A stretch of DNA of 64,000 nucleotides, taken from the IMG/VR virus record IMGVR_UViG_3300025598_000024, positions 41,160 through 105,159 of that record. One strand, written 5' to 3'. The notes under the pieces were generated by a model. That model was not told the origin of the DNA, made no database searches, and saw nothing but the letters and a program-made list of their open reading frames with translations. Below are positions 8,912 to 42,226 of the stretch, piece after piece. The position numbers and the translations under genes were made by a program. Source of the DNA: a virus. The stretch's first letter is position 1. Each line of letters starts with the position of its first letter.

Positions 8912-9278
8912 TTTCTTCCTCTGTTCCTTTGACGTAGTTGATGAGGCTAAGGGCATACAGTGCCCTGTCGATGATATCACCATCAGGGGTAGGACAGTGC
9001 TCAAGGTATCTATCCAACAGTTCTGAGAGTGAACTCTCCAGCTTTTGGATGCCTGCCTCATAGAAAACGTATTCGTTAACAGTAACTATCTGCTGGTCTT
9101 CTGGTAGTTCAGAAAAATCTTCTGGCTCTTCCAGAAGAAATTCTTTTTGGTTCTTGCTCATCTTTCTGATCTTGTTGAATAAATAGATGCCAGCAATGCT
9201 TTTGCCAATGCCTTCCATCTTGCCCTTCACGTCAGCTGGCTTGTAATCCATGTCCAGCTCATACTTGTATGGTTCCAT
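8895..9278 (-). CDS. hypothetical protein
   Basis: AAGGAG RBS, 127 aa. Confidence 0.65.
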   Translation of the reverse strand: MEPYKYELDMDYKPADVKGKMEGIGKSIAGIYLFNKIRKMSKNQKEFLLEEPEDFSELPEDQQIVTVNEYVFYEAGIQKLESSLSELLDRYLEHCPTPDGDIIDRALYALSLINYVKGTEEENGTEA

Positions 9279-9303
9279 GTTGCTCCTTACTTGTTGTTAA
9301 TGC

Positions 9304-9393
9304 TGGCGGAAGCAGTGGGATTCGAACCCACGGAGCGCTTGCACACTCAACGGTTTAGCAAACCGTCCCATTAGGCCACTCAGGCATGCTTCC
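9304..9393 (-). tRNA. tRNA-Ser(GCT)
   Basis: GGAAGCA/TGCTTCC acceptor, ACGGT-TT-GCT-AA-ACCGT, long variable arm, TTCGAAT, G73, encoded CCA. Confidence 0.93.
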
Positions 9394-9398
9394 AGACT

Positions 9399-9788
9399 TT
9401 AGTCGCAGCAGCTGTCCCGCCAGCCACATCCACCACACTTGTAGTGAGCATGCTCTGGCTTGAGGTCTGAACCACACTGTGGACAGTCCATGAAAACTGC
9501 GAGGGGGTTATGCTGCTGCTTGTCCCACTCTACACTACCACAGCACCCATCGCAACCGTGCACGCTGGTCTCTTTGAGCTCTGTGATCCTGTACTCATCT
9601 GGATCAGGATGACCAATACCATGAGTGCAGATGCGTTCCATGATACCACGGTCAGTTCTCCAGTGCTGTGGAAAAGACCGCATGGAATGATCAGACATGT
9701 TGTGAATGGTGCACTGTTGCCCATTGCACTGATCGCTGTCATGAACCATCAAGTAGACATCAGAGTTTTCTAACTGAACACGTTCCAT
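9399..9788 (-). CDS. Cys/His-rich hypothetical protein with C-terminal Zn ribbon
   Basis: ERICTHGIGHPDPD, HGCDGCC, CPQCG...CGGCG; AAAGGA RBS before ATG 9788. Confidence 0.7.
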   Translation of the reverse strand: MERVQLENSDVYLMVHDSDQCNGQQCTIHNMSDHSMRSFPQHWRTDRGIMERICTHGIGHPDPDEYRITELKETSVHGCDGCCGSVEWDKQQHNPLAVFMDCPQCGSDLKPEHAHYKCGGCGWRDSCCD

Positions 9789-9806
9789 ACTAATCCTTTT
9801 TACTGC

Positions 9807-9875
9807 AGTGGACATTGAGGGACTCGAACCCCCGACCCTCTGGATGTAAGCCAGATGCTCTAACCAACTGAGCTA
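9807..9875. repeat. 69-bp direct repeat copy 1 (tRNA-Val minus the 5' acceptor strand)
   Basis: identical to 11385-11453. Confidence 0.95.
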
Positions 9876-9882
9876 CCAAGGC
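9809..9882 (-). pseudogene. chimeric pseudo-tRNA-Val(TAC) with a mismatched acceptor stem
   Basis: 5' strand GCCTTGG cannot pair with 3' strand AATGTCC; the rest is identical to tRNA-Val. Confidence 0.8.
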
Positions 9883-9892
9883 CTATAGTTCT

Positions 9893-9921
9893 AGTATAGT
9901 GGTTACCTTGTTCGAGTGCAA
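9893..9921 (-). promoter_or_regulatory. sigma70-type promoter upstream of the chimeric tRNA
   Basis: TTGCAC (9921-9916), 17 nt, TATACT (9898-9893). Confidence 0.7.
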
Positions 9922-9995
9922 CTCTTAGCAAGAGTAGAGATTGACCACTATGCCATTGACCTTAAGGATTTCCACGGCCTTGTTTGATGAAGCCG

Positions 9996-11264
9996 TTAAA
10001 TCGACAGAATGCCACCTTGCCTCGGGCCATCCTTGATTGCGATCAAGTTGGCGTTCACGTAGCTTATGTCGTGTTCACGGTGCCAATCATTCGGGAAGAA
10101 CGTAATCAGGCGACTTACCTGGAATCGGCACGTGATCTGGGGCACGAAGTTGGCGTAGTTGCGATCCGTGAAGTACCAAAAGCTGTTCTCGTTGTAGAAC
10201 GCTACGTGGGTGGGGTCTTGGAATGCACCACGACCGTCCGTGCTGGGAGTCAAGGAGAGCAGGATGCCACCGTGTGCGAGCACTCGGTAAAGCTCGTTGA
10301 ACAACGTCACCTTGTCGGGAATGTGCTCGAGGAAGTCACGAGCTCGAATGACGCCGACCGAGTTATCAGGCAGCGGGATGCCCTTCGTCACATCAGCCAC
10401 GATGTCGACACCCGGCCGCTCGTACTGATCCACACCGACGTACTGGGGGTGCTTGTTGTGGGCCGCACCGAGGTCGAGGGCGAGCAGGCCCTCACGCTTC
10501 GCCCACGCCAGCGCATTGCCTTCGACGTAGGAGTCATACAGGGCAACCGTGTCGGTTTGGATCGCCTGGTTGATCGTGGGGTCAGACTGGGTATTCCTCG
10601 AGTGGACCCGCTGGAGGTAGAGGCACTGGTCGATGAGGTGGAACGCCGTGTGCTGGAACAGCCGGCACATCAGGTCTTGGTCGTCAAGCACCGTCAGCTC
10701 AGGGTTGTACCCACCAGCTGCGTCGTAGGTGGTCTTGCGAAAGGCTCGGAGGTGGTTCGGTGCGTACCAGATGTAACTAACGTTTTGTGGATACGGCAAC
10801 ATTGAGTTGCACTGCAACACTGATTGGCCGTTCACCTCGACTTCGGTGTACTCCCAACCGTGGGCCGGGTTGAAACGCTGATCGTTTCGTGAACCATCTT
10901 CATTAATCTGTGCACATTGGCTATAGACGAAACCAACCGATGGGTTGGCATCAAAAGCAGCGACCACTTCAGCCAAGGCTTCTTGAGCCAACAAGTCATC
11001 GTGGTCGAGTTCCAACAAGAACTCACCACGAGTTTGCTCGCAGGCATAACGCTTTGCTGCTCCAACACCATGCAGATCGTTGTTCTGCAACACTCGAACC
11101 CGAGGATCAGCAACCGGCGGACGCCAGTTGGCTCCATTGTTCATCACAACAACCCACTCCCAATCGGAGAAGGTCTGAGCTACGAGGCTGTCAAAACATT
11201 CATTCAGGAACGTTGGACGGTGGCTCGGCGTGAAGACGCTGATGCGCGGTTCGGTGGGGCTCAC
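9996..11264 (-). CDS. GT2 glycosyltransferase fused to a SAM-dependent methyltransferase
   Basis: ISVFTPS, LELDHDD, DDQDL; C-terminal LDLGAA, FLEHIPD, ELYRVL.HGG, DPTH. Confidence 0.88.
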   Translation of the reverse strand: MSPTEPRISVFTPSHRPTFLNECFDSLVAQTFSDWEWVVVMNNGANWRPPVADPRVRVLQNNDLHGVGAAKRYACEQTRGEFLLELDHDDLLAQEALAEVVAAFDANPSVGFVYSQCAQINEDGSRNDQRFNPAHGWEYTEVEVNGQSVLQCNSMLPYPQNVSYIWYAPNHLRAFRKTTYDAAGGYNPELTVLDDQDLMCRLFQHTAFHLIDQCLYLQRVHSRNTQSDPTINQAIQTDTVALYDSYVEGNALAWAKREGLLALDLGAAHNKHPQYVGVDQYERPGVDIVADVTKGIPLPDNSVGVIRARDFLEHIPDKVTLFNELYRVLAHGGILLSLTPSTDGRGAFQDPTHVAFYNENSFWYFTDRNYANFVPQITCRFQVSRLITFFPNDWHREHDISYVNANLIAIKDGPRQGGILSI

Positions 11265-11365
11265 TTCTTCGGACGCAGAATGGCCGGCTTAATCCAGTCC
11301 CACTCTCCTTTGGCATTCTTGACCTGGAGAGTTGCTCCTATACTGACGCTGAGTTTAATTTCCAT
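11261..11365 (-). pseudogene. truncated 34-aa paralogue of the 8609-8911 gene
   Basis: MEIKLSVSIGATLQVKNAKGEWDWIKP (23/27 identical) then AILRPKK*; its TGA overlaps the GT GTG start. Confidence 0.8.
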
Positions 11366-11384
11366 GTTTTCCTTTCTTACTTGG

Positions 11385-11453
11385 AGTGGACATTGAGGGA
11401 CTCGAACCCCCGACCCTCTGGATGTAAGCCAGATGCTCTAACCAACTGAGCTA
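11385..11453. repeat. 69-bp direct repeat copy 2
   Basis: identical to 9807-9875. Confidence 0.95.
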
Positions 11454-11460
11454 AATGTCC
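11387..11460 (-). tRNA. tRNA-Val(TAC)
   Basis: GGACATT/AATGTCC acceptor, TCTGG-CT-TAC-AT-CCAGA, TTCGAGT. Confidence 0.92.
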
Positions 11461-11469
11461 TAAAAATTG

Positions 11470-11628
11470 CTACTCTTCAGGTGGAGAAAAGAGATACAAT
11501 TCTTCTGTGTCATAAGCCTGTAAATCATCTGGGAATGATGAAAACTCTACTACTGCTTTACCATCAGAAGTAAAGCCAATAATCTTTCCAATTTCGATTG
11601 CTACGTAATCACCAGCTTTTAATGTCAT
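11470..11628 (-). CDS. small hypothetical protein (52 aa, not in the ORF track)
   Basis: MTLKAGDYVAIEIGK...; AAAGG RBS; fills the gap between neighbours. Confidence 0.55.
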   Translation of the reverse strand: MTLKAGDYVAIEIGKIIGFTSDGKAVVEFSSFPDDLQAYDTEELYLFSPPEE

Positions 11629-11643
11629 TTGTTTGCCTTTCTT

Positions 11644-11868
11644 TTAGTTGACGTACGTGATCTTACCACGTTCTGCATCAGTGTCAAACTCTAGTGGGAT
11701 CTCTGTGAGCAGGTCCCAGATCTGCACTGCATCGCATGGCCATGAGATATTGTACACGCCGTTTGGCCCTGCGCAACCACGGCACAGGCTAACGCTAGTG
11801 CCAGCGCCTTGTGCCTGGATCATTGGTGAGTGCTTCATTACCAGTTCGTATGGTGCATAGTTGTTCAT
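11644..11868 (-). CDS. hypothetical protein
   Basis: ATGA overlap with thyX stop; H..CxxC...WPC motif. Confidence 0.6.
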   Translation of the reverse strand: MNNYAPYELVMKHSPMIQAQGAGTSVSLCRGCAGPNGVYNISWPCDAVQIWDLLTEIPLEFDTDAERGKITYVN

Positions 11869-12542
11869 GGTGCGACCCTACCATTCTCGTTCCATGCCTC
11901 GTATGTTACCGGCATGGCTTGTTTAAAAAACTCTTCGACAGCACGAGCATAGTCCTGAATCTCCTGTTGTGCATGCCGCTCTGCTCTAAGGCTCAAGAAC
12001 GCCATCAATGACCTGGCGTTCACTGTCCAGATCCATTCAGTGTATGCGTTCACTGGCAGTACAATGCGTGCCAGCTCTGGTGCTACCCCACATGCTAGCA
12101 GAGTTTTGTAGCCCTGGAATGCACTGCTTGACGCTGAGTCAATCAGCCCTGCGATAGCAGGTTCATTCATGACTTCGTACTCGTAGGCTCCTGGCTTGCC
12201 AACACGCTTGCGGATGTGATCACGGTCAGGAACATAGTAGCCCATGTCGATCTCGGTGTAACGACCGCTCACCTCATTGAATGAGTTGCCAATACGATGA
12301 CGGATCCATTCCCTGGCCACAAAGATTGGCAGGCGAACACAGAACTTGAAGTAGGTGTGTTCGAATGGTGAACCATGCCGGTTACGCATAAGGTAACCGA
12401 TCAGTTTGTCATCGCCAGGTTCCATCTGTTCATGGCTGGTATGGAAAGACACGCGTGCAGCGTTAACCACGTCCAGGTCACTGGCACTGCTGTCTAACAG
12501 TGTGACGAACCCATCGTTATGTACTTTGATTGTATTTTCCAT
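11865..12542 (-). CDS. thyX: flavin-dependent thymidylate synthase
   Basis: AARVS, HGSPFEH, REWIRHR, SFNEVSGRY, ELAR.VLP, NARSL..F..LR, HAQQEI. Confidence 0.95.
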   Translation of the reverse strand: MENTIKVHNDGFVTLLDSSASDLDVVNAARVSFHTSHEQMEPGDDKLIGYLMRNRHGSPFEHTYFKFCVRLPIFVAREWIRHRIGNSFNEVSGRYTEIDMGYYVPDRDHIRKRVGKPGAYEYEVMNEPAIAGLIDSASSSAFQGYKTLLACGVAPELARIVLPVNAYTEWIWTVNARSLMAFLSLRAERHAQQEIQDYARAVEEFFKQAMPVTYEAWNENGRVAP

Positions 12543-12618
12543 GGAGCCGAGAGTGGGATTCGAACCCACGACATCTTTATTACAAGTAAAGCACTCTGAC
12601 CAACTGAGCTATCTCGGC
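12542..12618 (-). tRNA. tRNA-Thr(TGT)
   Basis: GCCGAGA/TCTCGGC, CTTTA-CT-TGT-AA-TAAAG, encoded CCA. Confidence 0.93.
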
Positions 12619-12623
12619 GGGTG

Positions 12624-12696
12624 TACCCCTGGCACGAATCGAACGCGCAACCTAGTGGGTAGAAACCACTTGCTCTATCCATTGAGCTACAGGGGC
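12624..12696 (-). tRNA. tRNA-Arg(TCT)
   Basis: GCCCCTG/CAGGGGT, AGTGG-TT-TCT-AC-CCACT, TTCGATT. Confidence 0.9.
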
Positions 12697-12701
12697 ATAT
12701 T

Positions 12702-12878
12702 CTAGTGGGTGATGTCATGCTCCTTGTCGAACTGCTTGTGAATCTTCTGCCAGATCCGTTTACGACCCAGGTAGTAACCCAGTGTGAACACAATGATCTC
12801 TTCTATCACACTCACAATGCTTTCCGCAATCAGATGATTGGGATCGGTGAGAATGCTCCACCAGGTCTCGTGATGCAT
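12702..12878 (-). CDS. small membrane protein (58 aa, not in the ORF track)
   Basis: MHHETWWSILTDPNH...IIVFTLGYYLG...; GGAG RBS. Confidence 0.6.
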   Translation of the reverse strand: MHHETWWSILTDPNHLIAESIVSVIEEIIVFTLGYYLGRKRIWQKIHKQFDKEHDITH

Positions 12879-12880
12879 GG

Positions 12881-13120
12881 CTAACTCCCTGTGTCGTAGA
12901 TGTTATCGCTGATCCCGTTCTGCCGCAAGATCTCGATTGCCTCATAGTAGTACGGGTTGCTCATCACACTAGCAGCCGGTGCTGCTGTCTTCAACACACT
13001 CTTCACCCACATCTTGTTAGCGTCATAGTTTACGAATGCATCGATCAGCTTGGGCTGTACCGGTACCTTGGCCAGTTCCAGGATGATCCTTGCTGCCCAT
13101 CGTATATCTTTAGTTGTCAT
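12881..13120 (-). CDS. hypothetical protein
   Basis: GGAGG RBS, 79 aa. Confidence 0.65.
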   Translation of the reverse strand: MTTKDIRWAARIILELAKVPVQPKLIDAFVNYDANKMWVKSVLKTAAPAASVMSNPYYYEAIEILRQNGISDNIYDTGS

Positions 13121-13131
13121 TGTTACCTCCG

Positions 13132-13174
13132 TACCCTGAGGGGGACTTGAACCCCCACCCCATGGAGTATACCA
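13132..13174 (-). pseudogene. 3' half of a split class II (Leu-type) tRNA
   Basis: TGG + 15-nt variable region + GGGGG-TTCAAGT-CCCCC + TCAGGGT + A73; begins immediately after the HNH stop. Confidence 0.85.
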
Positions 13175-13624
13175 TTATTTTTTCTTGTGTGCTGCTGTTT
13201 TCAATGCATGGCAGTTAGGGCACAAAATTTGTAAGTTCTCCAAAGAATTATCAAAATGATCACTGTTGATATGGTCTAGCTCTAGCGGTGCTGGTTGCCC
13301 CAACCATTCTGTTATCCCACAGACCTCACAAATGGCTTCTTTAATACCCTCCTTGATAAGTTTTAACCTTAACTTCCCAGAATGGATTGGCTGCCTATTA
13401 GATAGGTACTCTTCGATATCAACTTTATTCCTGGCTGGTCTTCCTTTTGTAAAGCTTTTGCCAACAAAATGTGAGTAATCAATACCTGCTTTTACAGCCC
13501 TATTTTTTAAATGGGTTTGTGACCCAGTCATTGGTTTTACGCCTATTTTTCTGCATGTATCAGCCCATGTAGTAGATGAAGCCACTGCATCAGCCAACTG
13601 TTGATCTGTATATCTATGTTTCAT
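13175..13624 (-). CDS. HNH homing-type endonuclease
   Basis: CEVCG...LELDHINSDHFDNSLENLQILCPNCHA; AT-rich. Confidence 0.92.
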   Translation of the reverse strand: MKHRYTDQQLADAVASSTTWADTCRKIGVKPMTGSQTHLKNRAVKAGIDYSHFVGKSFTKGRPARNKVDIEEYLSNRQPIHSGKLRLKLIKEGIKEAICEVCGITEWLGQPAPLELDHINSDHFDNSLENLQILCPNCHALKTAAHKKK

Positions 13625-13678
13625 GTATACTATAACACCACGTATACACTTTTACATTGTTTACATTGTTTTATATTG

Positions 13679-13762
13679 TGCCCCCGGTCAGACTCGAACT
13701 GACAAGACCTTACGGTCATTACCTCCTAAGGGTAACGTGTTTACCTATTTCACCACGGGGGC
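13679..13762 (-). tRNA. tRNA-Leu(TAG), nested inside the split tRNA
   Basis: GCCCCCG/CGGGGGC, TTACC-CT-TAG-GA-GGTAA, long variable arm, A73. Confidence 0.92.
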
Positions 13763-13802
13763 ATATCAAACCTGGCGCGTCTGCCTATTCCGCCATCAGG
13801 GC
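13763..13802 (-). pseudogene. 5' half of a split Leu-type tRNA
   Basis: GCCCTGA TG GCG-GAATAGGCAGA-CGC G CCAGG TT TGA TA; the acceptor strand pairs with TCAGGGT at 13133-13139. Confidence 0.85.
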
Positions 13803-13806
13803 TCTG

Positions 13807-13880
13807 TGCCCCAGGTGGGATTCGAACCCACACTACAAGGATTTTAAGTCCTCCTCCTCTGCCTGTTGGGATACTAGGGC
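13807..13880 (-). tRNA. tRNA-Leu(TAA) with short variable loop
   Basis: GCCCTAG/CTGGGGC, GAGGA-CT-TAA-AA-TCCTT, 5-nt variable loop. Confidence 0.9.
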
Positions 13881-13885
13881 TTCTG

Positions 13886-13967
13886 TGGGCCAGGTAGGAT
13901 TCGAACCTACGTAGCTTTACGCGGCGGTTTTACAGACCGCTTCCTTTGGCCGCTCGGACACTGACCC
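13886..13967 (-). tRNA. tRNA-Tyr(GTA)
   Basis: GGGTCAG/CTGGCCC, GCGGT-CT-GTA-AA-ACCGC, long variable arm. Confidence 0.93.
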
Positions 13968-13978
13968 ATTCTACTGCG

Positions 13979-14052
13979 TCGGAATGACAGGATTCGAACC
14001 TGCGACATCTGCGTCCCAAACGCAGCGCTCTACCAAGCTGAGCTACATTCCG
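13979..14052 (-). tRNA. tRNA-Pro(TGG)
   Basis: CGGAATG/CATTCCG, CTGCG-TT-TGG-GA-CGCAG. Confidence 0.93.
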
Positions 14053-14062
14053 TATACTGTTG

Positions 14063-14133
14063 TCCTCCTGGAGGGTACCGCCCCCTCTTTTCAGGATTAA
14101 AAGTCCCGTACATCACTTTAATGTTTCAGGAGG
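14063..14133 (-). tRNA. non-canonical tRNA-Lys(TTT)
   Basis: CCTCCTG/CAGGAGG, ACAT/ATGT D stem, CGGGA-CT-TTT-AA-TCCTG, GAGGG/CCCTC T stem; but A8, no D-loop GG, T loop GGCGGTA. Confidence 0.7.
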
Positions 14134-14605
14134 TTAAATATTCTTCTATTGATTCTTTCTTTTTTTCATACCATCCTAGTCTGATGTTGCAACTATAGCA
14201 CAGTAACCCTCTAACGCTACCAGTTTTGTGATCGTGATCAACACAAAAGTTTTTACCAGTAGAGCACCTATCGATCTTGCATATTCCACAGCGATGGTTT
14301 TGACCCTCTAGCATACTGTAGTAATCAGCAATAGTCAAACCAAATTTTCTAGTAGCAGATTTTATATTAAAACAATTTCTACAATATGCATTTTTATTGT
14401 TATCACCTTTGTAGGCACCACAGTATAAACATGGTTTTGGTGATGGTACATAACTGGAGTACCTAACTGAATGCTGTGCTCTAGCTGCGCAGCTTTGAGA
14501 ACAGTATAATCCTATATTCTTTTTTACTTGATAGGCATATCTTTTATATACATTGCTACAGTCAGTTCTACTGCATATTACTTGCTCTGATGTTCTAGTA
14601 GTCAT
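14126..14605 (-). CDS. endonuclease VII-family homing-type endonuclease
   Basis: CGIC...VDHDHKTGSVRGLLCYSCN..LG; N-terminal YCSQSC Zn motifs; AT-rich; AGGAG RBS. Confidence 0.88.
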   Translation of the reverse strand: MTTRTSEQVICSRTDCSNVYKRYAYQVKKNIGLYCSQSCAARAQHSVRYSSYVPSPKPCLYCGAYKGDNNKNAYCRNCFNIKSATRKFGLTIADYYSMLEGQNHRCGICKIDRCSTGKNFCVDHDHKTGSVRGLLCYSCNIRLGWYEKKKESIEEYLTS

Positions 14606-14650
14606 AGTCACTCTCCTGTGGCTACTAGTGCAAGTACAAGTATGAATTAA

Positions 14651-14678
14651 ATCACTCTACCAACTGAGTTACAGGGGC
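14651..14678 (-). pseudogene. 5' remnant of a canonical tRNA (acceptor strand + D arm)
   Basis: GCCCCTG TA ACTC-AGTTGGTA-GAGT G, then no anticodon or T arm. Confidence 0.75.
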
Positions 14679-14995
14679 ATGTAATCGTACTCCCAATCAT
14701 CCATGCTACCCAACCTTACCAGATGCATGCAAGGATCGTCACCTCTATCCCAGGCCTGCTCTTCAGTGGGATGCACAGGGTACCCATCGTGTGTGTTGCA
14801 GAACTGCTCACTACAGTAGCCGTTCTCCACGCCATAGTTCAACCACTGCTCAAAGTCCATCCTGGCATCTCGCTGCTCTTGACAGGTGCAGTACCAGTCA
14901 AAGTGAATACGGAATGCCTGTCGCCTGCAGTTCAGGCAGTGCTTGACGCCTTCGCTGTCTGTGTCTACTTCAGTCTTGTGTACCATTTCTACCAA
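14669..14995 (-). CDS. hypothetical Cys/His-rich protein
   Basis: FEQWL.YG...GYCS...CNTHDG.P....GDDPC.H.VRL. Confidence 0.6.
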   Translation of the reverse strand: MVEMVHKTEVDTDSEGVKHCLNCRRQAFRIHFDWYCTCQEQRDARMDFEQWLNYGVENGYCSEQFCNTHDGYPVHPTEEQAWDRGDDPCMHLVRLGSMDDWEYDYMPL

Positions 14996-15624
14996 CGCCC
15001 CGGTTCATAATAGTTAAAAAGAACTGCGATATCATCACAGTATATCACGTTCTCTTTGGTTTGATAAGCAATAACCTCATCTATAAATATACCATCACCC
15101 GATGGGTGAAGCGGTACCCTGAACTGTTTGAGAATCTTTCCAGTCAGAAAGATCTGTTCAATACTAACATGATCTCTCCTGGCCGACTCAGGGGTTGCGT
15201 TAAGACGTGTCGGAGGGTGAGCGCTCTCTGGTGCATGACCTTCAGGCAGCCTGTACCCTCTTTCCATTGCTGTGATAATAACGTCAGATGCTTTACCCTG
15301 TGACTTGACAAGATTTATTCTGTCTGCTAGGTCTTTGAAAAACGTAGGGTCGTATGCATCATCATCATTTAAAAAGCACCAGTACTCATCGTCTTTAACA
15401 TGATTAGCAATAAACCAATTTAATGACGTGTTGCTACGCGCCCAAAATTCTGTTGCATCATTGGGGCAACGATACGATATAATCCAGTCCTCATCGAACT
15501 GAAGACCAAATCCAAGATCATCATCAACTATTACGTGCCAGATAACGTCATGCATACTGAGCATATGTTTTAGAAGAGGTATGTTTTTGAACCTCATCAT
15601 TGGCGTTACAACATTAAAACGCAT
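14989..15624 (-). CDS. GT2-like glycosyltransferase
   Basis: VVTP, FLNDDD, DG.FI, NY. Confidence 0.7.
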   Translation of the reverse strand: MRFNVVTPMMRFKNIPLLKHMLSMHDVIWHVIVDDDLGFGLQFDEDWIISYRCPNDATEFWARSNTSLNWFIANHVKDDEYWCFLNDDDAYDPTFFKDLADRINLVKSQGKASDVIITAMERGYRLPEGHAPESAHPPTRLNATPESARRDHVSIEQIFLTGKILKQFRVPLHPSGDGIFIDEVIAYQTKENVIYCDDIAVLFNYYEPGRW

Positions 15625-40690: not shown

Positions 40691-42226
40691 CTAGTAGACT
40701 ACGAAGTTGCTCTGAGCGTTACCATAAACTACTTGACCGGTCTGCGTGTTAAGGCTGACATTGGCCTGGATGTAATTGATTGGGAACGTCGGTGCATATT
40801 GGAAGCTGACAGTAATTGTTGTAGGCGTAGCTGGATTGACTGCGAAGCTAAGGTTCTGATAGCCCTGAATCAGGCCATTGCTCAGAGCATTAGTAAGAGT
40901 CGCCTGTACAGTAGCCAGTGCAGCAGCACTTGTATTCTTTGTGAGAGGCCCACCAACCAGATAACTGTTGATCAGGTCAGTCCTTACAAGCTGTGCCAGT
41001 CTGTCACCAATTGCACTGATGGAAATCTCTTGTGTCAACCAGTTTTGTACATTGGTGGTTAGCCCATGCAGTACCCAGAAGTTTCCATCTGTCTTCTTGC
41101 GAACAACAAGAACTCCATAAGGCAAATAACTTGTCTGTGCATCTGTCAGGTTGATCTGGTTGGGGATGTCATTGAAACCAAGCACCTGCTTGTTGGTGAT
41201 TGGCGTGCTGATGTCCGGCTGCTGGCCTACAAACAAACCAGCTAGTGCGGCAGCAACATAGTAACCAGCAATGTTAATTGTAGCGTTGCTCAAACCGTTT
41301 GTGGTGTTAAGACCAGGATTAAAGTTAACTACAGGAGGGTAGATAACGCTAACTCTGGAACTGTTAAAACCATTGGCAAGAGCCTGGTAACTAGCTACTG
41401 TGGTCTGAGCATTGGTGCCATCTACACCCAGGAAAGCTCTCTGATAGATACCATTGTTAGCCTGAGTGTTGATGTAAGAGTTGATAGCATAAGCTACAGT
41501 ACCTGCAGTTACACCGGTGATAACACCACTGGATGTAAGTGAGTTGAGAGGTACAATAACATCAGCAGCAGTGTTGGACAGGTAGATTGGGTTGCTACCG
41601 CTAGTGGCTACAGTCAATGTGTTAGCCCAGTCACTGGGTTGAGCAGAGCCACTGTTCGATACACGAGCTACTGGTACGATACTTACAATACTAGCGCCGT
41701 TCTGGAACGCTAACTGGCTTGCAAGAACTGCTGGGTTGACGATAGTTGTACCACTGATTGCTGGCCCAATAGCACTGGATACAGCGTTCTGGCTGGTGTA
41801 CCTACCGTATGCCCCCCAATTGTGACCGTACTGTAAGGTTAGCGTGCCACTGGGAAGTGCGTTAACTCCAGTTGCTGTAACACCAACTGTTGTAAGGGTG
41901 CTGATGCCGTTAGCAGTACTAATATTAAAGTTGTATCCGTATGTTCCTGTTACAGTCGTACCGCTAATGCCGCTAGCCCAGGTGAGAGTAAACCCTGAAT
42001 AGCTAGCATAAGTACCGGTCGATGTGGTGTTTACCGTGGGAACAGTCAACTGACCTAGTGGGATACCACTGGTTGGAACTGGTGCATAGAAAGTATCAGT
42101 CTGACTACCTGGAGTGGGCTGGTCAGCTACAATAGCGATGCTAAGGCTGGTGGGGCTAACGCTGGTCAGCGCAGATGTTGTCTGCGTTACATACACACCA
42201 GGCACTTGGTAGTTAGAAATAGGCAT
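40691..42226 (-). CDS. contractile tail sheath protein
   Basis: YQVPGVYV start, AAALAG, P.TNK...GF, GLTT, EIS, P.FPINYI. Confidence 0.85.
   Translation of the reverse strand: MPISNYQVPGVYVTQTTSALTSVSPTSLSIAIVADQPTPGSQTDTFYAPVPTSGIPLGQLTVPTVNTTSTGTYASYSGFTLTWASGISGTTVTGTYGYNFNISTANGISTLTTVGVTATGVNALPSGTLTLQYGHNWGAYGRYTSQNAVSSAIGPAISGTTIVNPAVLASQLAFQNGASIVSIVPVARVSNSGSAQPSDWANTLTVATSGSNPIYLSNTAADVIVPLNSLTSSGVITGVTAGTVAYAINSYINTQANNGIYQRAFLGVDGTNAQTTVASYQALANGFNSSRVSVIYPPVVNFNPGLNTTNGLSNATINIAGYYVAAALAGLFVGQQPDISTPITNKQVLGFNDIPNQINLTDAQTSYLPYGVLVVRKKTDGNFWVLHGLTTNVQNWLTQEISISAIGDRLAQLVRTDLINSYLVGGPLTKNTSAAALATVQATLTNALSNGLIQGYQNLSFAVNPATPTTITVSFQYAPTFPINYIQANVSLNTQTGQVVYGNAQSNFVVY

Follow-up and report, generated by a model that had tools for sequence, protein, structure and literature searches.

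How does a phage come to carry a leucine transfer RNA (tRNA) gene that is broken in two, with a nuclease gene and a second, complete tRNA-Leu gene lodged between its parts? This question is raised by a locus on the minus strand of a 64,000-nucleotide (nt) stretch of DNA (hereafter the window), which makes up the last 64 kilobases (kb) of a 105-kb IMG/VR record estimated to be 71% complete (IMGVR_UViG_3300025598_000024, positions 41,160 to 105,159) and belongs to an uncultured contractile-tailed phage encoding a tail sheath, a portal and other virion proteins. Our comparison of this locus with ~120 homologous loci points to a probable answer, namely that an intron-less homing module, consisting of a tRNA gene and an HNH endonuclease gene, was inserted by illegitimate repair into a resident tRNA-Leu gene that had been cut.

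Read along the minus strand, the region runs from tRNA-Pro and tRNA-Tyr to a 75-nt tRNA with a UAA anticodon and a short variable arm (13806..13880; called by ARAGORN and Rfam, and context outside the split gene), and then, after 3 nt, through the 5' part of the resident tRNA-Leu, the letters GATAT, the nested tRNA-Leu(UAG), a spacer, the HNH gene and the 3' part. The 5' part (13768..13802, 35 nt, positions 1 to ~34 of the tRNA) starts with GCCCTGA as its acceptor strand and continues through a Leu-type D arm, the anticodon-stem strand CCAGG and TTT. A first-pass annotation, made from the sequence alone, had extended it to 13763; comparison with intact tRNA-Leu genes shows that 13802-13768 is tRNA-like and that GATAT (13763..13767) is not, leaving the latter as left-junction filler or a module-borne spacer. 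The nested tRNA-Leu(UAG) (13678..13762) is complete, with 85 nt, a long variable arm and A73, is called by both ARAGORN and Rfam (59 bits), and is the sole tRNA-Leu(UAG) of the 105-kb record. It is followed by a 53-nt AT-rich spacer (13625..13677) and by the predicted HNH homing-endonuclease gene (13175..13624, 149 amino acids (aa)), whose TAA directly adjoins the 3' part with 0 nt between. This 3' part (13132..13174, 43 nt) opens with TGG (tRNA positions 41-43) and continues through the variable region, a perfect T arm (GGGGG/TTCAAGT/CCCCC), the acceptor strand TCAGGGT and A73. The two parts lie 593 base pairs (bp) apart within a total span of 671 bp, and their acceptor strands pair 7/7, including one G-U. 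The first-pass annotation had described complementary halves about 590 bp apart, a complete tRNA-Leu(TAG) between them and a stop codon abutting the 3' half, an anatomy that we recover at the same minus-strand coordinates.

The spacer (13677-13625) contains two GTATAC motifs and a TATAGT 4 nt ahead of the ATG, and is promoter-like by eye, as had been proposed, but it gave no promoter call in a sigma-70 consensus scan, and no Shine-Dalgarno sequence was found in it. Enrichment of GTATAC upstream of HNH genes is real but concerns a minority (7/90). GC content is 0.39 in the insert and HNH gene vs. 0.51 in the flanks, with an Endo VII gene 500 bp upstream likewise AT-richer, and this comparison supports viewing the insert as a foreign, AT-richer unit.

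We next asked whether the two parts are truly the remains of one tRNA-Leu gene. We took 36 phage tRNA-Leu genes and built half-profiles from their initial 34 nt and final 32 nt. In the 105-kb record these profiles recognised no clear orphan halves besides the 5' half (E 0.0024) and the 3' half (E 0.0028) described here, with one additional 5' match at E 0.44. Across 50,697 phage records, the best matches of each half were tRNA-Leu genes. Rfam returned weak tRNA-like matches only for the single halves, and ARAGORN called 233/600 artificial fusions of both halves as tRNAs. The D arm, anticodon stem and T arm of the resident gene match tRNA-Leu genes of Acidimicrobiia: a 24-nt portion of the 5' part, covering the D arm and one strand of the anticodon stem, is identical in cellular tRNA-Leu(GAG/CAG) genes of 67 species (L188-L254), among them 39 Actinomycetota, 31 of which are Acidimicrobiia, and in some of these genes the T arm is identical too. 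By its D arm, A73, variable arm and best matches, the resident gene is thus assigned to leucine. The same split is carried by L001, an independent IMG/VR contig, so it is not an assembly artefact. As a separate observation, the 24-nt identity with cellular tRNA-Leu hints either at the lineage of the host or at where the resident tRNA came from.

Alignment with the tRNA-Leu(UAG) of S-CAM4 and with cellular genes places the break precisely: the 5' part is tRNA-like through CCAGGTT(T), to about position 33-34, and the 3' part restarts at T41, within the CCTGG stem strand. Some 5-8 nt are therefore lost, taking in the anticodon together with the loop on its 3' side and two nucleotides of the stem, which makes the original anticodon unreadable and bears out the uncertainty voiced in the first-pass annotation. 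An uninterrupted GCCCTGA...TCAGGGT tRNA, which that annotation led one to expect in relatives, did not turn up in IMG/VR pattern scans; exact scans with 24-nt 5', 30-nt and 22-nt 3', and nested-tRNA patterns returned L001 or nothing, and thus no intact allele of the resident tRNA. A degenerate 5' pattern matched 24 loci in IMG/VR, all of them other tRNA-Leu genes with non-matching 3' ends. Two other candidate remnants were set aside. A GCCCTAA near the HNH 3' end pairs 6/7 with the 3' acceptor strand, as if a full tRNA were hidden there, but it lies in conserved HNH codons (CPNCH) and no D or anticodon arm accompanies it; and TGGTATAC at the right junction, considered as a D-loop remnant, has too little sequence after it for an anticodon arm.

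We also searched the locus for a self-splicing intron in several ways. A permissive Rfam search of 9000-15000 found tRNAs only and no group I ribozyme at E<=1, and ARAGORN's intron mode (its long-intron search) found no intron-bearing tRNA across the split. Searched the same way, RF00028 scored 59-70 bits in ten related loci and had no match in the window. There is also no room for a ribozyme, as 0 nt follow the HNH stop codon and the 143 nt upstream of the HNH open reading frame (ORF) consist of the 85-nt tRNA and 58 nt of AT-rich spacer and filler. The HNH ORF thus stands alone, outside any Rfam intron, as a free-standing gene. A group I intron at this site would separate U34 from A35 and leave both exons complete, whereas here the left end falls at ~T34 and positions 35-40 are gone; with these positions missing and no ribozyme present, the split gene cannot splice.

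The protein itself is, by sequence, an HNH (His-Me finger) endonuclease, with activity predicted from a PF01844 match over residues 99-143 (32.3 bits vs. a cut-off of 21.4) and a match to PHROG 10822 (E 5.7e-42). Its 149 aa are full length compared with 15 homologues, with a C-terminal tail of normal length, and an alignment of 16 homologues (A1) shows invariant columns at C99, C102, D117, H118, N130, C135, N137, C138 and H139. A database search at E<=1e-10 gave 724 homologues, of which the nearest (P0002) has 69% identity and the closest set (P0002-P0016) 55-69%. IMG/VR has 516 or more homologues, ten contigs encode an identical HNH, and a PDB sequence search returned no informative structure. 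Over 101 aa the protein is 56% identical (E 2e-36) to an H-N-H enzyme from the tRNA region of the T5-like Serratia phage Slocum, which the Slocum record likens to T5 hegA/TflIV; our own comparison was with the Slocum enzyme only. In a phylogenetic tree, the window HNH groups with P0002 (Shimodaira-Hasegawa-like approximate likelihood ratio test (SH-aLRT) 98); in their clade the context is known for L030 alone, which is free-standing. Intron-borne enzymes fall in at least two places of this tree, one intron clade being sister to a free-standing clade (SH-aLRT 97).

We then classified the surroundings of ~120 homologous loci from IMG/VR, metagenomes and isolates. Judged from these neighbourhoods, the HNH family is tied to phage tRNA genes bearing a Leu anticodon, and it occurs in four layouts. 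In layout 1, the HNH gene lies within a group I intron of tRNA-Leu(UAA), inserted between U34 and A35 and ending in G, as in L007 (1414-2172), L046, L050 (1388-2244) and L062 (1414-2179), with RF00028 scores of 64-70 bits (gathering score 50) and intron-bearing genes spanning 759-857 bp; ARAGORN's intron mode suggests the same layout in L176 and L181. In layout 2 (L113, L132, L144, L151, L163 and L169; 59-69 bits), tRNA-Leu(UAA) contains an ORF-less group I intron, and a free-standing HNH gene follows ~45 nt downstream. In layout 3, the commonest at ~35 loci, the HNH gene starts 36-52 nt downstream of a tRNA gene that bears a Leu anticodon and has no intron; some of these tRNAs are full-size tRNA-Leu, the others tRNA(UAA) of 73-77 nt. 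The layout is also found in S-CRM01 and in Gordonia phage GodonK, whose HNH gene lies 3 nt behind the end of a tRNA-Leu(UAG). In layout 4, seen at more than 10 loci as well as in Slocum and the FelixO1-like phage mistaenkt, the HNH stop codon abuts or overlaps a downstream tRNA-Leu.

Compared with these layouts, the piece nested in the window's split gene, with its tRNA-Leu, 53-nt spacer and HNH gene, is layout 3. The full nested arrangement occurs in 2 of the ~120 loci, namely the window and L171. The expectation that HNH homologues would be found with split or nested tRNAs thus holds for their association with tRNA-Leu and for a second split in L171, but not as a general arrangement, and at this frequency the nested layout looks like an occasional misrepair product rather than the element's normal form. 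Among the tRNA-Leu genes of the first 44 HNH-homologue loci (L005-L013, L030-L064 and Slocum), the nested tRNA has no close relative (<=69% identity), so its co-travel with the HNH gene is not demonstrable by tRNA comparison.

Two further features of these phages were apparent from the survey. The 73-77-nt tRNA with a UAA anticodon and short variable arm is common among them and usually accompanies the HNH gene on its upstream side (e.g., window 13806-13880, L171 1360-1436, L035 8-84 and many of L112-L180). We also observed in-frame TAG codons in the HNH homologues of L005-type loci (L005, L008, L031-L034 and L037), and tRNAs with a CUA anticodon in L030 (63-135) and L036; together these suggest that the phages concerned probably read TAG as an amino acid.

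Evidence that the tRNA and HNH genes travel together comes from L171 and L174. Positions 1291-1940 of L171, comprising 66 nt, a 77-nt tRNA(UAA), a 46-nt spacer and the HNH gene to 7 nt before its stop codon, are 95.7% identical to L174 between unrelated flanks, so that, at the level of sequence comparison, the tRNA+HNH unit is demonstrably mobile as one piece. In L171 (1224-1961), this unit is flanked by two pieces of a tRNA-Leu: a 24-nt 5' fragment, made up of the acceptor strand GCGAGTA and the D arm, and a 14-nt 3' fragment (TCTCCC, TACTCGC and A) with no gap between it and the HNH stop codon. The acceptor strands of the two fragments pair 7/7, and L151 and L166 carry an intact tRNA-Leu, itself with an intron, that both fragments match. 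Relatives with the same downstream gene as L171 do not have the 3' fragment, and the L171 HNH tail is 14 codons shorter than that of L174, with its stop codon at the junction. The nested layout thus arose at least twice, its break points falling in the D arm and T loop in L171 and in the anticodon in the window, and the position of the L171 breaks away from the intron site indicates that splitting needs no intron. Of the mobile, tRNA-cutting selfish element envisaged by the first-pass annotation, mobility of the unit and the splitting of a second, unrelated tRNA-Leu are borne out, and intron-borne relatives point to the anticodon loop as target, while cutting of the rejoined gene stays at the level of inference.

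The subsequent fate of the locus can be read from L001, which is 99.9% identical to the window around it. L001 is missing 435 bp (window 13207..13641), corresponding to the promoter-proximal spacer and the HNH gene except its last 32 nt, which indicates that the HNH gene is dispensable and being lost. Within 12400-13206, 4/5 of the differences between the two contigs lie in the 43-nt 3' half, and two of them leave L001 with GAAGG in place of GGGGG in the T stem. The broken T stem implies that the 3' half is free of tRNA-type constraint and that the halves are dead remnants. The 3'-half changes take the form of two tandem dinucleotide changes within 10 nt (13154-13163 vs. L001 7576-7600), beside the HNH deletion, and may represent a repair scar or conversion tract. 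We additionally observed a 16-nt near repeat (15/16) at 13189-13204 and 12979-12994, encoding LKTAA both in the HNH tail and in a downstream 79-aa ORF, and the L001 deletion ends exactly at its upstream copy; the 79-aa protein has no relative besides that in L001.

Taken together, these observations suggest the following course of events. The family's normal mode of spread would be homing, in which an HNH-less tRNA-Leu allele is cut and homologous repair copies in the tRNA+HNH unit. The homing site of intron-encoded endonucleases is centred on the intron insertion site (PMC3984707), so the intron-borne members should recognise the anticodon region of tRNA-Leu, and layouts 2 and 3 have the look of free-standing derivatives that would keep this target. 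In the window, the HNH enzyme, or its immediate ancestor in a co-infecting layout-3 donor, would have cut the anticodon loop of the resident tRNA-Leu. Because the resident gene and the donor tRNA-Leu(UAG) would be too diverged for homologous repair (60-70% identity among such genes), the break would have been closed by illegitimate joining, which copied in the ~590-bp donor unit at a cost of ~5-8 nt of target. The halves would then form homologous arms, with which the new structure could home normally into intact alleles, while Leu(UAG) decoding would be supplied by the nested tRNA. Later deletion of the HNH gene, as in the L001 lineage, would be expected in the gain-and-loss cycle of homing endonucleases. 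We infer the role of this HNH as the cutter, the cut site, the nested tRNA's escape from cutting and the repair pathway. The first-pass annotation was largely right on the anatomy and the kind of element, and probably over-read the nested tRNA as a designed rescue; this tRNA may be the nuclease's usual neighbour carried along.

Several points weigh against this reconstruction. The anticodon-region cut site is deduced from where the introns are inserted, and the left break coincides with that canonical intron site, as a decayed intron would also give. The left junction lies 5 nt short of the nested tRNA and the right one coincides with the stop codon; both are functional boundaries, contrary to random end-joining unless selection filtered the outcomes. 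The locus is present in only two close genomes, and with no empty-site allele in IMG/VR the insertion is deduced from the complementarity of the halves. Finally, the four clustered changes in the L001 3' half exceed drift at 0.1% divergence and stand unexplained.

Nuclease genes beside broken tRNAs also occur elsewhere, in a shared form in which a 5' tRNA fragment is followed by a nuclease ORF and then by a complete tRNA or tRNA-like stretch, as in L006, where the nuclease is again an HNH, in L083 and at the window's own Endo VII gene. The record's nine tRNA genes all lie on the minus strand (9304-14052), with small ORFs, thyX and two nuclease genes scattered among them. On that strand, at 14063-14678, a 25-nt tRNA 5' fragment (14678-14654; acceptor strand plus complete D arm) overlaps the stop codon of the upstream ORF and precedes an Endo VII-family gene (14611-14126; PF02945, 68 bits), whose own stop codon is followed by a stretch with 7-bp acceptor-like pairing that neither ARAGORN nor Rfam calls; this looks like a second nuclease gene in a broken tRNA of the same array. 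In L083 (8310-9181), a 28-nt tRNA-Leu 5' fragment is followed by a 241-aa ORF, PD-(D/E)xK-like at its C-terminus by eye, and by a complete tRNA-Leu(tag) overlapping the ORF stop by 10 nt, and a second similar ORF (9849-10529) overlaps a tRNA-Met likewise. We had considered L083 as a further nested case, and rejected it on finding that the supposed remnant is a complete tRNA missed by ARAGORN. At 9810-11460 of the window, two tRNA-Val(tac) genes flank a segment ~80% identical to L001 within flanks that are 99.9% identical, which looks like a cassette exchange anchored on tRNA genes.

Could the split instead be the relic of a mobile intron? In such a history, a group I intron with its HNH gene between U34 and A35 would have lost its core together with the first nucleotides of the downstream exon, and a tRNA-Leu(UAG) would have inserted in, or replaced, the 5' part of the intron. 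HNH homologues do occupy tRNA-Leu introns at this very site (e.g., L007 and L062), the window's tRNA-like sequence stops at ~T34, the 671-bp span comes near the 759-857 bp of intron-bearing genes, and a TATAC...TATAGT element ahead of the ATG is common to the window, L007 and L046. Yet this history needs at least three events vs. one for insertion and would have left no core trace that Rfam detects, while the insert is exactly the family's standard free-standing unit of tRNA, spacer and HNH gene, the window enzyme clusters with free-standing members, and L171 is broken away from the intron site, at the D arm and T loop. We therefore regard intron decay as unlikely. A slimmer chance still attaches to two independent decays, in which the module once lay between two full copies of the resident tRNA-Leu, the upstream copy then losing its 3' part and the downstream copy its 5' part. 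Turnover of this kind would fit the tRNA-Val-flanked cassette that differs from L001 between nearly identical flanks, as well as the 5' tRNA fragments followed by complete tRNAs beside other nuclease genes (L006, L083 and the window's Endo VII), but it sits poorly with remnants that are complementary almost to the nucleotide, ending at ~34 and restarting at 41, a match that is rare from unrelated deletions and is seen again in L171.

The split might alternatively serve a function at the RNA level, with the acceptor strands pairing over 590 nt into a tRNA-like domain that guides how the HNH transcript is processed by RNase P or at its 3' end, or with an RNA ligase joining the halves into a tRNA. 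The window's split gene keeps its acceptor pairing, D arm and T arm undamaged, and processing of the tRNA downstream of T4 segB is reported to cut the segB mRNA at its stop codon, so that tRNA processing can control a nuclease mRNA (PMC2330249). The loss of positions 35-40 precludes a normal anticodon arm, Rfam finds no ribozyme, maturation of the nested tRNA would part the halves, and two mismatches break the T stem in L001. GATAT and a tRNA come after the 5' half, Lys codons and TAA come before the 3' half, and inspection by eye, with no dedicated search run, revealed no complementary leaders or bulge-helix-bulge beside the halves. Given these features, we consider an RNA-level function very improbable.

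Insertion of the tRNA+HNH module by illegitimate repair is accordingly the reading we carry forward, and it bears on a broader proposition that we advance tentatively, at slightly short of even confidence: tRNA+HNH units may be distinct and widespread intron-less "cut-and-replace" elements of phage tRNA arrays, interchangeable in evolution with tRNA-Leu group I introns, which pay for the destroyed tRNA with a working one and drive turnover of the tRNA repertoire. The window would then represent one caught insertion rather than a one-off accident. Homing endonuclease genes presumably arrive at new sites through rare illegitimate events that are almost never observed, and the window and L171 would each keep such an event with both junctions readable, the window also pointing to the anticodon region of its tRNA-Leu gene as the probable place of cutting. 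Here the insertion appears to have proceeded without the self-splicing intron that normally keeps the host gene working, and a single nuclease family is found at every stage of an association with self-splicing introns: within one, next to an ORF-less one, next to a tRNA without any, and within a broken tRNA. The main value of the locus is thus that it probably preserves ectopic homing as a readable fossil and that it gives access to an undescribed intron/nuclease/tRNA-Leu system in phages, in which the exchange of roles between introns and free-standing nucleases, the reshuffling of phage tRNA sets, and the ability of a hitch-hiking tRNA to replace an intron as the device making insertion harmless are all testable.

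Free-standing homing endonucleases in phage tRNA clusters are already established, with SegB and the T5 enzymes F-TflI/II/IV as examples. In the open-access literature that we searched, we found no report of a nuclease+tRNA unit without an intron splitting a tRNA gene, and none of group I introns in phage tRNA genes. The free-standing SegB of T4/T6 lies in a tRNA cluster, cuts the tRNA genes of SegB-less relatives and drags neighbouring tRNA genes with it, and its stop codon adjoins the next tRNA (PMC2330249); SegB also promotes the rearrangement and amplification of tRNA+segB units via microhomology (PMC13096335). The window shares with SegB a selfish nuclease gene among phage tRNA genes, a stop codon at the next tRNA and tRNA genes carried along. 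It differs in that SegB is a GIY-YIG enzyme that has its recognition site in the T-loop region and is flanked by unbroken tRNA genes, and the SegB papers (PMC2330249; PMC13096335) describe no tRNA split by a unit with a nested complete tRNA. The T5 tRNA region (Akulenko et al. 2004, as cited in PMC2330249 and PMC5714182) encodes, as H-N-H endonucleases, F-TflI and F-TflII along with F-TflIV/hegA. The window HNH belongs to the same PF01844 class, shares a family with them via Slocum and likewise lies in a phage tRNA region, and the Slocum enzyme abuts a tRNA-Leu, although no split tRNA is annotated in Slocum.

On the intron side, the window break lies at or within 1-2 nt of the U34-A35 insertion site of the group I intron found in tRNA-Leu(UAA) of cyanobacteria and plastids, and HNH homologues occur in such introns in phages, whereas the window has neither the ribozyme nor positions 35-40. 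A 2014 review placed all phage introns then known in protein-coding genes (PMC3984707), and the phage tRNA-Leu introns described here thus fall outside it. A precedent for an anticodon-region target is provided by a cellular intron-encoded PD-(D/E)xK homing endonuclease, which acts on another tRNA and has another fold than the window HNH. A last parallel is collaborative or trans homing, exemplified by F-CphI and the psbA intron of cyanophage S-PM2. In this process, an ORF-less intron is mobilised by a neighbouring free-standing endonuclease (PMC3984707), and L113, L132, L144, L151, L163 and L169 have exactly that layout. The window departs from it in being intron-less, with a second complete tRNA gene apparently taking the place of the intron in protecting the host gene.

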